Positions 91-60,862 of a stretch of DNA of 64,000 nt are shown piece by piece (within the stretch, counting starts at the first letter, position 1; each line of letters opens with the position of its first letter). Below the pieces are notes generated by a model that did no database searches, had not been told where the DNA came from, and saw only the letters and a list, made by a program, of their open reading frames with translations. A program made the position numbers and the translations under genes. The DNA is from Eledone cirrhosa (Eukaryota). The stretch lies in NCBI GenBank assembly GCA_964016885.1, contig OZ024743.1, positions 253,146,001-253,210,000 of the forward strand, written 5' to 3'.

Positions 91-344
91 AATAGAAAAT
101 GAAAAATCAGTGATGCATCTGAACATCTGAACTCAATTTATTGTGTTACAATTGTTTCGCCGTCTGATTCTGGACCCGCAGGTTCGACGGACGCGTCTAA
201 TGATTTAGGAGCATATTCACTCACTGCGAGTCCAGAATCAGACAGATCCACACAATGATCGCGTCTCGAGCTGTCGGCCGGCGAAACAATTGTAACACAC
301 AATAAATTGAGTTCAGATGCATCACTGATTTTTCGTTTTCTATT
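91..344. repeat. Imperfect inverted repeat (fold-back) carrying the 3' half of a hammerhead (GAAA-CAATTG-TA) on each arm
   Basis: aatagaaaatgaaaaatcagtgatgcatctgaa...ttacaattgtttcgcc (91-161) is mirrored by ggcgaaacaattgtaacac...atcactgatttttcgttttctatt (280-344); inner arms gtctgattctggac / gtccagaatcagac. No CTGANGA found. Confidence 0.7.
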
Positions 345-548
345 GTATCATACTCTGCTCTGTAAGAGCATAGATTGCTCAACCGGCATACCGCCTATGG
401 AAGCATCTTAGCTACCATCAGACACACACACACACACACACACACACACACACACACACACACACACACACACACACACACACACACACACACACACACA
501 CACATATATATATATATATATATATATATATATATATATATATATATA

Positions 549-2308
549 TGTATTTGTTTTGCGGGGCTTTTGATATGAAATCGTGTGTCGAAACAAATAT
601 TGTTATACTTGGGAAGGGTCATATTTTTGTTATAATATTGCAAGAATTAATAACAGAACACACTCACTGTTTGGTTGGTTTTCGCTTCTGTATCTTTTAT
701 ATCAGTTAATTTATTTGGTCCTCAATGTTTACCATTGATAGACCTATGGTCACAAATATAGATATAATATAGATATAAACACATATATATAGTCTAACAA
801 ATTACTTTCGTTGCACATCTGCAACATCGTCAGTGGTGCTATTATGTTCCTCCTGTTGTATTGTATATCTACGCCATCTTTATTTGTTTAGTTATTTATT
901 TATTTTTGTCTTCTTCTCTGCGCATGCGTTTGCGTGTGTGTACAGTGTTTGGTGTGTGTTCGCGTATGTGTGACAGTGTTTTGGTTATTGTATTCTATCT
1001 TATTTTACTAGTGTGTGCTCATGTATTTGTTGCTATTGTGCTTGTGCATATATATATATTTATTTATTTATTTATTTATTTATTTATATTTCTCTTAAGT
1101 TAGTATTGTTTGTTTGGGTGTTGTTCTTCCATTCATTTTTTTCTATTTAGCTTTGGCCCTCTAAGTTTATTTCACTTGCCTCTCTGATTTGCCTATCTGC
1201 AGGTTCATTTCTATGTTTAGATATTATTTTAATTTCTATGTTGTCTATGTTACCGTGATGTTTTTGTCTGGCGTGTTCATATAGTACTGAACCGTTTTTT
1301 CGTCCTTTTAGTTCCCCCCAGTGTTGGTCTATCCATTCACCTATGTTACGAGCTGTCTCGCCTTTGTCTGTATGTATTGTTGTCATGTTTCTGCAAGTAC
1401 CCTCTGTACATCTTATACTATAGACTACCTTTCTAGTTTTACAGTTTCTCCGGGGGTTTACTTTACATATAATACATTTCCTATTAGTACAGTGGGTTTT
1501 CTTAAAACGGTATGTTTTGCTGATCAGGGATTTTATGATAGTTCCTGGCTTTTCTACCACTTGAATTTTTAAGTGGCTCTTTCTCAGGGCCTTTCTACAC
1601 TGGTTAGTAAATTTCTCTCCAGGGGTAGCGTCCACGAACATGACACTCTGGTATCTCTGGTTATCGTACCATGAGGTGGCTTTCCCTATCTTATGTTTAG
1701 TCCTATCTAATCTATTCCATGATTTGCTCCTGTATAATGGGCAAATTCCTTTCATGTCCAGTTCTATGAGGGTATTATACTTCTCCGAGGCTCCTACGTA
1801 TACTCTGAGTCTGTCTCTTTGGTTGTAGCCAGAGAACTGCATGTGGTTGATGAAGTGTTGGATGTGTCTTTCCATTTTGCTGGGTCGCACATGCGGGATA
1901 CGTTCATCATCACTCGTACCAAGTCTGAAATCAGAATATTAAACTTAACACCTCTGGATATTGTTGAGTTTTGAGTATCAGGTATTTGGAGGCCATGGGT
2001 TTAGCGTAGTGTGAGTGGAGAATTTTGGCCCTCTCGTCTATAGTGTTAATCCAGAGTTCCGTGTCTAATACAGGTAGTCTACTGTTAGGGTGTATGGAAG
2101 GGTAGTCGATAGTTACAGTTATACTCTGGTGTATGGAATTAGCTATCTGCTGGATGTTTTCCATTGTGCTACATTCTAAATCATACTTGTTAGTACTCTC
2201 TTGTGGGGGGTGTCCTTATTACTATATTAATGTCGTCTACGTAACGAGGTATATGGAGCGCTCATCAAAGAGATCTTTGAGTCTCCTTTCCCACCATACC
2301 ATACCATA
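549..2308 (-). mobile_element. 5'-truncated, frameshifted Penelope-like element (same family as 42819-45281)
   Basis: ORF pieces 1931-2164 and 1147-1890 encode RT C-terminal motifs (LPVLDTELW) and a Cys-rich linker + GIY-YIG region (HCTNRKCIIC..VVYSIRC..GETAR..RQIREA). 549-1100 is the pLTR/3' region also seen at 42819-43320, 44775-45281 and 57675-57990. Confidence 0.9.
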
Positions 2309-2407
2309 AATATATAAATATATATATATATGTGTGTGGGTGTGTGTGTGGGTGATTGGGGTTGGGGGTGGGGGAGGGGGTACATGTGTGCGCACGTGCT
2401 TGTGTAA

Positions 2408-57990: not shown

Positions 57991-58473
57991 ATATATATAT
58001 ATATATATATATATATATATATATATATATATATATATATATTCGTGTTAATTAGTTCCTTGTCTTACGATATTTTTAGAGGGTTGATTACTCATGATAA
58101 ACTGATATATTTGCACCTTAATAGTAGTTATGACATCACTAGTTTCGATGTCCCAGATGCATTCTACTGTTTTACTCAGAACCAACGAACTATAATTATT
58201 AGTTCAAATCCCGTCGAGGTTTACTTTGCCTTTCATCCTTACGGGGTCGATAAAATAAAGTACCAGTAATGCACTGGGTAATTGCTGGCCTTGTGCCAAA
58301 AGTAGAAACAATTATTAGTAGTATGATGCATATAAGGAAGCTGATTTTCTAGAATCTACAATGGAATCTTATGCGATGTGAACCTACTTGAAAGACAATA
58401 GCTCTCATTGCATGATCTCGTTGGAATTATCTCTTCAAAACTGCATGGAGTCCTAACAAAATTATTGCCCCCA

Positions 58474-59192
58474 CGTATACACTCGTGTAATAGCCGATCT
58501 CATGTAAACGTCAACCCCCACTTTTAGTCAAAGAATCTTGAACTTTTCATACACCTCGTATGTAAGTCAACCCGGGTATTTTACGGATAACAAGTCAACA
58601 TTTTTGGGTCCACATATCATCCTGCACGTAGAAATAAAACTGTTACAAAATCGTCATGAATTTAAGGCAGATTCATATTATTGCAAATACATGCCTGAAA
58701 GAAAAACGTGTGCCTACCTTATTTCAATTTCAAGCACTATGAAAATGATGTGGTAGGATAATTGTGATGCGAATTATACTGACTAGGTATCGGTCATGTG
58801 CAGATTATTATGGTAGGTAGTGGCATACCAGTATATTTATTACCCACGGTAATATTACAGCAATTATGAGATAAATATTAATTGCACTTAGCTAGTCTGT
58901 TACGTTTGATGGATACAAGTAAAAGATCAAGTGTAAATATTTATAAGTTCTCCGAAGTCTTTATTATGGATTTTGTTTTTTACTAGGTTGTGTGTTTCGG
59001 TGCATAGAATCGGCAATATTACTATAATTCATTGTGATTTTGTTTTTCTTCGTTTAGAAATCAGTTCGGCTTCTGATACTGATACGGTACTTTGGATTCT
59101 AGTTTGAATTTCAAGACCTTAATTGTGGCATCCCTTGAATTTATCCTTAAATACTGGACTAAAACATTCGACTTTTATACGAGTATATATCG
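58474..59192. mobile_element. Degenerate pogo/Tigger-like MITE
   Basis: Imperfect TIRs cgtatacactcgtgtaatagccga / tcgacttttatacgagtatatatcg; subterminal repeat ctcgtatgtaagtcaaccc. Confidence 0.55.
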
Positions 59193-59814
59193 TATATTTA
59201 CTCATTTTTACGTATATATATATATATATATTCACCTTGCTCTCTGCTGGTTGTGTTTGTCTAGGTATTAACGTCTAAACAAATAGAAAAAAATATTTTA
59301 TCTGTGTTTGTATATTCTCTATCTCTTTCAGGCTCTCGTCTATAACTCTTTTTTCAGTTGCATCTTATTTGTAAATCATTGAAAGCAAGTCCTCTTGTCT
59401 TCAGTCTATTTGTTACTGTCCCTTGTACACTGGGGACAGTTGTATTGATTTTAAAGCACCAAAACAACGATTCTCTATAACACGACTGATAAAGGTAGAC
59501 TGTCTCATTATTGGTGGTTTTTTATCCGTTGTCCTCGCCCATATTTTATATTTATTTTTTTTATTTGAGTCATATATGACCCTTTTTCAAATTGATATGT
59601 TCTCGTTTACATTTTCTGTCTTCTGTTCTCAAACATTATGGTAACTGTATGATATATTCACAGAAGGAAATAGAGAAAAAATACTTTTTTTCGTTACGAA
59701 AAATATTTTGTCTTTGACAGTGAGGCTACGCATATGTTTATTATATATAAACTTATAATATATGTTTATGTATATTTTCATATGTACCGCCCACCTCTCT
59801 CTCTCGTTATATAT

Positions 59815-60862
59815 ACATATCAAAGGCATGTATTGAGTTAGAAACTCAAAATAGTTTCATTACAGTAAATTAGCTCTACGGAAAGACGTTTTTCCGAGCC
59901 GTATAGTATAACTGAACAAAAAAGAAAAACTAACACAAACATATACATATATGTGTTCAAATCGTAATGGACCACAATCGCTAAGGTGAAAAAAATACTA
60001 ACTACAGACAATAGGGTTTGTTAGACTCAATTTAAGAATAAATCAAGAAAAATATATACAAACCAGAATTGTGGTAACTACCGATAAACCGGACAGTTTT
60101 GATAGTACTGTTCCGCAATATTATTTGTGAAGAGGAATACCAAAGTCCTAGCTCATCAACGGGTGAAGAAATTAGTATCCTGATCACTTCTAAATATAAT
60201 TTAAAAAAACTGGATAGTGTGTGTATATGTAACACACGTGGTTCCCGAACCTAGCGTGTCTCGCAGACTCACGCCACTAAAAATAACAGCCGGGTTTACT
60301 CGACATTTGAATTAGCTCGACGAATTAACGGAGCCGAATATATCAAAGGCATGTATTGAGTTAGAAACTCAAAATAGTCTCATTACAGTAATTTAGCTCT
60401 AGGAAAGTGGTTTTTACGAGCCGTATAGTATAACTGAAGAAAAAAGAAAAACGAACACAGACATATACATATATGTGTTCAAATCGTAATGGACCACAAT
60501 CGCTAAGGTGAAAAAAATACTAACTACAGACAATAGGGTTTGTTAGACTTAAGAATAAATCAAGAAAAATAAATACAAACCAGAATTGTGGTAACTACCG
60601 ATCACCCGGACAGTTTTGATAGTACTGTTTCGCAATAGTATTTGTGAAGAGGAATACCAAACTCCGAGCTGATCAGCGGGTGAAGAAATTAGTATCCTGA
60701 TCACTTCTAAATATAATAAAAAACTGGATAGTGTATAACACACGTTTGTATTTTTTTTATTTTATTTATTCTTAAGTTGAGTCTAACAAATCCTATTGTC
60801 TGTAGTTAGTATTTTTTTCACCTTAGCGATTCTGGCCATTACGATTTGTTCAGTTATACTAT
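59815..60862. mobile_element. ~523-bp non-coding unit + partial tandem copy + short inverted segment ending in (TA)n
   Basis: caaaggcatgtattgagttag at 59821 and 60344; 60746-60862 is the reverse complement of internal unit segments. Confidence 0.8.

Follow-up and report, generated by a model that had tools for sequence, protein, structure and literature searches.

We analysed a 64,000-nucleotide stretch of the genome of the octopus Eledone cirrhosa (GenBank assembly GCA_964016885.1, contig OZ024743.1, positions 253,146,001 to 253,210,000; "the window" in the following), which contains TA microsatellites, hammerhead ribozyme motifs and fragments of Penelope-like elements (PLEs). The genome comprises 3.0 Gb and the window has 35% G+C. 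A first-pass annotation of the window listed 14 hammerhead sites and proposed a helper/parasite system in which PLEs mobilise diverse small ribozyme RNAs into microsatellites. The sequence makes it quite likely that the window is a collection of many (TA)n insertions of truncated PLE 3′ ends and of retrozymes without an open reading frame (ORF), the latter probably copied by the PLE reverse transcriptase (RT) and GIY-YIG nickase. Overall, the phenomenon is real, with half of it being ordinary PLE debris and the other half a guild of retrozymes that seems to bear a PLE signature. This view builds on what is observed in the sequence: the families to which the copies belong, insertions laid out in two arms and bounded by two fixed outer ends, the TA next to them, covarying hammerhead pairs and motif density.

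Tandem units, their hammerheads and their insertion sites

The tandem units and two decayed repeats in the window are listed here with their coordinates and strands.

50277..53173, 5.9 units on the - strand and 3.4 on the + strand: 311-bp unit, type I hammerhead, two opposite arms; long end at base 166, short end at base 140, (TA)n on both sides
8498..9291, 1.8 units on the - strand and 0.66 on the + strand: 319-bp unit related to that of 311 bp, in two arms, with a U3-A8 core
40045..40979, - strand: 525-bp unit in 1.8 copies; stems II and III of its hammerhead are long
30118..30812, + strand: 543-bp unit, 1.3 copies, type I hammerhead at 30481
22401..22767, + strand: ~440-bp unit, 0.84 copy, type I hammerhead at 22616
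59820..60866: 523-bp unit, 1.75 copies on the - strand and a short second arm in inverted orientation; decayed hammerhead of type I
3794..5264: 625-bp unit, two arms; type-SGC hammerhead-like cores at 3863 (-), 4488 (-) and 5237 (+)
14680..14885, - strand: decayed hammerhead repeat (site 14769), assigned neither to the ORF-less units nor to a PLE
20266..20800, - strand: decayed hammerhead repeat (site 20408), compared with one other copy and likewise assigned to neither

A type I hammerhead is found in each tandem unit of the 311, 319, ~440, 525 and 543 families, and no ORF of 100 amino acids lies within these inserts. Judging from their sequence, five of the 14 sites are ORF-less head-to-tail units, i.e., non-LTR retrozymes (those that lack long terminal repeats) of 311, 319, ~440, 525 and 543 bp. 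Unit lengths range from 311 to 625 bp, with 1 to 16.6 copies per arm. The tandem units of 311, 525, 543, 523 and 625 bp in the first-pass annotation are present; its "321" unit measures 319 bp, and what it took for a single 311 array within a range of 1.3 to 6 units consists of 5.9 and 3.4 units in two opposite arms. Nor are all families unrelated, as it had supposed, the 311 and 319 units being 70% identical. In the hammerhead of this 311/319 group, nine of the 12 pairs change on both sides among 10 members, including C3-G8 to U3-A8 (0 of 500 shuffles), in a test that is inflated by kinship among the members. Folded to minimum energy, the 311 unit gives a stable structure (z -4.5) that has stem II together with a shifted stem I rather than the full active fold, as expected because the palindromic stem III would need a dimer.

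The arrangement of these insertions was studied in 17 arrays of the 311 unit, the window copy and 16 best-match loci. Two opposite arms are joined at their 5′ sides in 14 of them, and in all 14 the outer ends fall at unit base 138-140, which is an internal AT word, and at base 165-173, and lie in TA or TA/CA repeat. No fixed position is seen for the inner junctions, most of which show an overlap or filler of a few bases, and some of which are more complex. Since the tail is on the longer arm in eight of the 14, neither arm is privileged. Paired fixed ends recur in the 525 (60/180), 543 (178/266), ~440 (143/169-185) and 319 (141/167) units, where they are 25-120 nt apart in the ORF-less units as a group, and in the autonomous PLE-A, -B and -G. 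A tail, an inverted copy and a preference for (TA)n have been described as PLE hallmarks (PMC8557442; PMC3846280). The ORF-less units insert like PLEs, with mirror-image arms and two fixed outer ends, both against (TA)n. The helper/parasite reading can be kept for the five listed families, together with the 523 and 625 units: all of these are circularly permuted and ORF-less, and the ones whose ends were mapped (311, 319, ~440, 525 and 543) have PLE-type fixed ends at (TA)n. It does not extend to seven other sites, which are 5′-truncated ends of autonomous PLEs. Any target-site duplication is masked by the (TA)n around the insertions.

Runs of six or more TA number 123 in the window and cover 6.6% of it. 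The suggestion that the insertions adjoin TA far more often than by chance is borne out, as TA is next to 45-100% of the ends in 14 of 15 end classes versus 3.5% for the background and one of 114 ends of a control repeat; the exceptional class, which has a poor anchor, has TA at three of 13 ends. In principle, the (TA)n could have been written by the element, through slippage at its AT-rich end, instead of being its target, and the short ends do coincide with internal AT-rich words. However, TA also follows long ends and truncated 5′ ends where such a word is missing, TA runs occur about twice in every kb of the genome (1033 in 530 kb), and Hydra, Naiad and Neptune PLEs have been described as inserting into (TA)n (PMC8557442). 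Writing by the element is hence improbable.

The same arrays bear on the possibility that the short units are solo pseudo-long terminal repeats (pLTRs) or satellites, enlarged locally through unequal crossover and dispersed by duplication at the DNA level. Seven of the 14 listed sites are indeed pLTR stubs, and a 2026 preprint (bioRxiv 10.64898/2026.07.22.740005) names the local amplification of a PLE end among the ways in which tandem arrays may arise. Near-identical 311 arrays, however, are spread over 12 or more large contigs; their outer ends are fixed, but flanks and inner junction differ from array to array, and crossover does not make such a pattern. The first-pass annotation had named a finding that all short units are solo pLTRs as one outcome that would overturn it; this holds for the seven sites only, the five ORF-less units not being contiguous with a PLE ORF in 1.83 Mb of loci. 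For the 311, 525, 543 and ~440 units, this origin is largely refuted, and as a general account it is very improbable.

With respect to known systems, the units resemble the non-LTR retrozymes of metazoans (Cervera and de la Pena 2020; PMC7229834), which are described there as head-to-tail repeats rich in AT and devoid of ORFs, each unit measuring a few hundred bases and containing a single type I hammerhead; retrozyme units of 51-972 bp are given in the 2026 preprint. They differ in having two opposite arms and two fixed ends in (TA)n, and in that several unrelated families coexist, one of them with the SGC form; the words "inverted" and "microsatellite" do not occur in the main text of PMC7229834. 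Moreover, circles were shown in that work, whereas the present units are known from DNA sequence alone.

The 523- and 625-bp units were said to lack a clear hammerhead. The 523 unit nevertheless carries a type I motif (read from the sequence): stem III has 4 bp, stem I has 7 bp, and different core bases are broken in the two window copies. In the 625 unit, the motif has the non-circularly permuted SGC order and is not of type I: a scan for the five strand orders other than type I gave three matches in the window, all of SGC order and all in the 625 unit, versus 0.1 in shuffles, while types II, III, CSG and GCS gave none in the window. Across 13 diverged copies, 96.5% of the cells in the SGC structure pair, compared with 28-49% in slid controls that lean in its favour, as the structure was drawn from the same alignment. 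Of its 31 pairs, 15 change on both sides, with such changes in five of seven stem I pairs and one of five stem III pairs. Stem II is not directly paired; instead, its two halves are bound by two different strands further upstream, in helices 1 and 3, which both covary. Type-SGC hammerheads as described by Eckert et al. 2023 (PMC10085705) have their blocks in the same order (cleavage site, then GAAA, then CUGAUGA) and likewise show covariation in stems I and III as well as one additional helix. In contrast to the 625 unit, a genomic retro-repeat, the published ones are almost only metatranscriptomic, and the pairing of the stem II halves with separate upstream strands also sets the 625 unit apart. 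The 625 unit thus appears to work like a retrozyme, but as a variant with a candidate SGC form in place of type I.

Penelope-like elements and their truncated ends

The PLE-derived features of the window are as follows.

42822..45279, - strand: PLE-A, Neptune/Nematis-type motifs; 5′-truncated RT-endonuclease ORF 43321-44775, 3′ untranslated region (UTR), inverted 5′ arm with a 42-nt tail
558-2302: older copy of PLE-A
37140..39650, + strand: PLE-B, Hydra-type; ORF 37140-38438, UTR with an internal TA run, pLTR hammerhead core at 39380 (site 39375)
9436..9845: PLE-B 3′-end palindromic two-arm stub, junction inside the hammerhead
31202..33300, - strand: PLE-C, Hydra-type; ORF pieces 32268-33271, 1-kb UTR with a hammerhead of the 25627 family
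25621..25749, + strand: PLE-C 3′-end stub (site 25627)
5668-5782, 7930-8447 and 19864-20014: further PLE-C stubs
21543..21990, + strand: PLE-D, Hydra-type, 3′-end stub (site 21752)
28367..30099: PLE-E, Hydra-type, long 3′ UTR two-arm stub (site 30006)
14134..14333, + strand: PLE-F, Neptune/Nematis-type, 3′-end stub (site 14186)
22784..23088, - strand: PLE-G, Hydra-type, pLTR stub (site 22796)
35981-36111 and 41006-41057: tiny PLE-G stubs that begin at the first hammerhead base with an extra G
20067..20232, - strand: PLE-H, Neptune/Nematis-type, 3′-end stub (site 20162)

Three PLE ORF fragments are present, as annotated, and at least eight PLE families are represented. Sequence comparison places seven of the listed sites as 5′-truncated 3′ ends (pLTRs) of autonomous PLEs, five Hydra-type and two Neptune/Nematis-type. 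The statement that most families have no ORF therefore does not hold as a family property, as seven of the 14 sites belong to ORF-bearing families. Site 39375 is contiguous with the ORF at 37140-38438, and in each of 25 loci its UTR again lies downstream of this ORF; likewise, the UTR of the 25627 family follows an ORF like that at 32268-33271 in 25 of 25 loci. Site 30006 is located ~2.7 kb behind a Hydra-type ORF in three of four long loci, and site 21752 ~400 nt behind the end of such an ORF in at least nine of 20. In one locus, the tail of site 22796 continues into the start of a Hydra-type ORF; only the N-terminus of PLE-G is visible there. For sites 14186 and 20162, the upstream continuation is formed by GIY-YIG ORFs with a CX4CxxC linker.

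By motif alone, B, C, D, E and G would fit the Hydra clade, and A, F and H Neptune or Nematis. When read by eye in relation to the criteria in PMC8557442, CxCX5C is seen in B, C, D and E, DKT in B and C, RWK in B and RWR in C, the Hydra criteria also including a lack of CCHH; in PLE-A, F and H a CX2-5CxxC linker precedes GIY-YIG and CCHH is present, as in Neptune or Nematis. Hydra-type frames of 785 and 689 amino acids have YxDD and C-terminal GIY-YIG-like motifs (also by eye), with 108 relatives at E<=1e-20, mostly near 700 amino acids. No Pfam family was assigned to the full PLE-A and PLE-B frames, and a PDB search of PLE frames gave weak RT matches only (E 0.05 and 0.16).

Partial tandems, an inverted 5′ copy, a one-sided tail and (TA)n insertion, which characterise endonuclease-positive (EN+) PLEs, are all found. 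Moreover, Hydra and Neptune/Nematis elements as described by Craig et al. 2021 (PMC8557442) and Arkhipova et al. 2013 (PMC3846280) share the C-terminal GIY-YIG with a CxCX5C or CX2-5CxxC linker, the start of the ORF inside the pLTR/tail, TATA and initiator (Inr) elements in the pLTR, and an asparagine-rich insert. The Hydra-type tails are 60-190 nt here, unlike the published 30-40.

In the window copy of PLE-A, the hammerhead-like motif has a 2-bp stem I. The PLE-A tail represents the beginning of the following ORF, the permuted unit measuring 4,133 bp. A full PLE-A frame outside the window (L069:1537-5187, - strand) has 1217 amino acids from stop to stop, with a long asparagine-rich tract before the RT; such a tract is also known from rotifer Penelope families (PMC3846280). 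Its start codon sits in the pLTR/tail of the upstream copy. At another PLE-A copy, a TA-rich microsatellite of >5 kb lies directly at the 5′ side (L072:4860-10000). In PLE-C, A usually replaces the conserved U4 of the core (e.g., 31325-31335 on the - strand and 8381 on the + strand), while the listed copy at 25632 has U; activity of this family form would be doubtful or unusual.

Site 14769 was considered as part of a Hydra ORF element and rejected, as a fold-back junction intervenes and the match is a distant relative. A stub at 14000-14131 (- strand) matches the 3′ UTR of another Hydra-like PLE (L075:2300-5900) and has a hammerhead-like motif with a very long stem II. In addition, a repeat that the first-pass annotation did not list forms small palindromes between TA runs (13293-13335, 39838-40001 and 49516-49706); half of a hammerhead, with GAAA, stem III and the cleavage part, is present in it, and the two arms meet within this motif.

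Traces of copying and a proposed mechanism

The insertions retain traces of how they were copied. In the window PLE-A, the short-ended arm reaches further 5′ and the tail is only on the other arm. As neither arm contains the other, the two were templated separately and are not DNA copies of each other. Many 5′ ends of PLE-G and PLE-C coincide with the first hammerhead base: for PLE-G, a 13-nt window at this position contains 26 of 50 ends, compared with 1 and 2 in the windows on either side, and for PLE-C an 11-nt window contains 23 of 99, compared with 3 and 6. The cluster is positioned 29-31 nt behind a TATA box in PLE-G and PLE-F; no cluster at the first hammerhead base was seen for PLE-A, D, E or H. 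A G that is absent from the template is present at about eight PLE-G and at least four PLE-C junctions, sometimes on both arms. Copying of the cap by RT adds a G, as established for LINEs (long interspersed nuclear elements); the non-templated G at the stub starts is as expected if RT copies a cap. The extra G at the start of both arms therefore points to sense capped RNA as template. Antisense self-priming, by contrast, is favoured in the account given in PMC3846280.

Two chimeras, each a single case, suggest template switching between families in one event. In the first (L183:1200-1330, - strand), a 525 arm is paired with a PLE-C tail joined to 525 bases 171-198, beyond the normal end of the unit, and a template switch is likely. 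In the second (L142:1-560), a PLE-G end is joined to a PLE-B tail and ORF start. The first chimera also bears on whether a non-PLE enzyme mobilises the units, for example that of an RTE-like LINE, of which the window holds two.

9873-13157, - strand: near-complete RTE-like LINE with one frameshift, between TA runs
33867-35022, - strand: second RTE-like LINE fragment

The former has apurinic/apyrimidinic (AP) endonuclease and RT domains (~9873-13157), and its position between TA runs speaks for this reading. The sole informative chimera, however, involves a Hydra PLE, and the tail and the tandem/inverted layout are described as unseen in LINE target-primed reverse transcription (PMC8557442), leaving mobilisation by a non-PLE enzyme barely credible.

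More difficult to separate is the shape of the template. The same PLE machinery could have copied a linear, partly cleaved read-through transcript of a master array, with no circular RNA being involved. Three of 42 arms of the 525 unit, in two loci, start exactly at the predicted cleavage site, and many stubs start at the capped end, so linear RNAs were certainly copied at times; a homogeneous master array would also yield identical units. Yet all 20 units of one 311 array, on either arm, share a private base change that none of 139 other scored units has, a pattern most simply obtained from one small template that was re-read, and circles dominate among the coral, mussel and axolotl retrozymes (PMC7229834). 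A purely linear template is possible, though on this evidence rather unlikely. As evidence for cleavage or circular RNA, the three 525 arms are only a hint.

Copying of the ORF-less units by PLE proteins would proceed as follows. Capped RNA would start from a Pol II promoter just upstream of the hammerhead, the hammerheads would cut multimers into units, and the units may be ligated into circles. The PLE nickase would open a (TA)n, and cDNA synthesis on sense RNA would be primed by both target strands, at an AT-rich site within the unit for one of them (giving the short end) and 25-120 nt further 3′ for the other (giving the long end, the PLE "tail"). Each cDNA would be extended until fall-off, up to 17 units on a small template, and the two cDNA ends would then be joined head to head by microhomology. 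A cDNA primed on the first copy of the site would run off the cap, which would leave the tiny hammerhead-only stubs.

Several points weigh against this reading. The loci were chosen as best matches, which biases them to young, full-length copies. In 1.83 Mb of loci, no PLE ORF adjoins a 311, 319, ~440, 525 or 543 unit unless a TA run lies between the two, and the link from a unit to a particular PLE helper comes down to one chimera. As a hint to possible helpers, the 525 and 543 tails (120 and 88 nt) are similar to those of Hydra-type elements, and the 311 and 319 tails (26-33 nt) come closer to that of PLE-A. Some of the counts in the 5′-end clusters represent two arms of one insertion, or alignment ends due to subfamily divergence. 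Families A, B and C have non-canonical consensus cores or stems, and cleavage was observed in only one of nine Xenopus retrozyme dimers in the 2026 preprint. Finally, the inner junctions of the 311 arrays show no stop at the predicted cleavage site, which fits circles and, equally, uncleaved multimers.

Retrozymes, the PLE-helper hypothesis (PMC7229834; 2026 preprint) and (TA)n targeting (PMC8557442) are already published. Mobilisation of retrozymes by PLEs through circular RNA was proposed in PMC7229834, and the 2026 preprint likewise presents retrozymes as non-autonomous PLE derivatives. Its evidence, however, is co-occurrence and pLTR homology, mostly in vertebrates, as opposed to an insertion signature and a chimera here; pLTR homology was not found for the ORF-less units in the 1.83 Mb of loci. 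Our literature search turned up nothing on retrozymes inserted into TA as two arms, on stubs that end at the cap or on SGC hammerheads from animals, its scope excluding subscription papers and the supplements of PMC8557442 and of the 2026 preprint, which may bear on novelty. It also found no report on octopus hammerhead ribozymes or retrozymes in microsatellites of this kind, and the main text of a 2026 octopus repeat annotation contains neither "ribozyme" nor "retrozyme".

How tandem and inverted PLE copies form is presented as an open question in PMC8557442, as is the mobiliser of animal retrozymes in PMC7229834. In this context, the young, near-identical, fixed-end 311-bp arrays provide a small defined substrate, with exact predicted priming, cap and cleavage sites, for an in vitro PLE reaction, and the genome constitutes a large natural library of hammerhead variants, including the candidate SGC form. 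A more far-reaching interpretation is offered tentatively, the odds being somewhat against it as a whole: that the genome has several hundred thousand motifs, more than any printed count found; that a PLE guild copies unrelated small RNA circles in trans via dual (TA)n target priming; that the insertions record each step of the PLE cycle (capped start, cleavage site, rolling copying and cross-family switch); and that a rebuilt, non-circularly permuted hammerhead is active in an animal.

Hammerhead numbers in the window and the genome

A type I descriptor (core CUGANGA or UUGANAA, GAAA, UH and three scored stems) matches 21 motifs in the window, in agreement with the predicted enrichment, versus a mean of 0.15 (max 1) across 40 local dinucleotide shuffles and none in the reversed window sequence. 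One array supplies nine of the 21. Among the 14 listed sites, 10 pass (9084, 14186, 21752, 22608, 22796, 25627, 30006, 30474, 52375 and 40097, the last via its second copy at 40700), while the window copies of 14769, 20162, 20408 and 39375 fail. Other copies of the 20162 family pass, and in 39375 the stem I register is ambiguous family-wide. In an Rfam scan of the window, the hammerhead family is absent among the best 150 of 320 matches; these 150 are microsatellite-driven and mostly miRNA families.

Every listed family has copies elsewhere in the genome (nine DNA and three protein searches). The first look gave 87 to 3,575 candidates for DNA queries and 44,239 to 86,369 for PLE proteins, numbers that are not to be equated with copy numbers. 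In 64 fixed-position 10-kb samples (640 kb), 76 type I matches were found, i.e., 119 per Mb (bootstrap 73-177), which reduce to 59 loci once tandems are collapsed; four shuffles gave 0-1. Extrapolation from the samples predicts roughly 2-5 x 10^5 hammerhead motifs in the genome, an estimate that misses families with odd cores and counts motifs, not activity. The window is within about two- to three-fold of the genome average and is not special.

The Schistosoma mansoni genome is ~0.4 Gb in size. More than 38,000 hammerhead candidates have been reported for this species (PMC2770079), 126,247 for axolotl and >6,000 for a coral (PMC7229834). Comparison with these counts indicates that the density resembles that in schistosomes and that the absolute total is unusually large; the expectation of an extremely ribozyme-dense genome is thus upheld in absolute number. 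The minimal hammerheads of PLEs (Cervera and de la Pena 2014; PMC4209133) have the U3-A8 core, the palindromic stem III and the variant with a 2-bp helix I in common with those described here, as well as opposite-strand pairs 100-700 bp apart, an origin of most motifs from truncated PLEs and a circular-template model. They are reported in thousands per genome (up to ~9,000), in contrast to the ~2-5 x 10^5 estimated here.

The commonest hammerhead group in the random samples (L097, L091, L112, L115 and others) is absent from the window. It has an 8-bp A/U-rich stem I and a palindromic stem III. In several of its subfamilies, a TATA-like box is present ~28 nt before the core, and the transcript start is hence predicted to lie inside the ribozyme.

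The control family for the TA comparison resembles a short interspersed nuclear element (SINE) and has about a dozen copies in the window; as a family, it does not border on TA.

7514-7616, 14471-14671, 17145-17446, 24200-24370 and 35655-35807: SINE-like control family
36262-36835, 47096-47190, 54439-54531, 58195-58322 and 61342-61532: further copies of the same family

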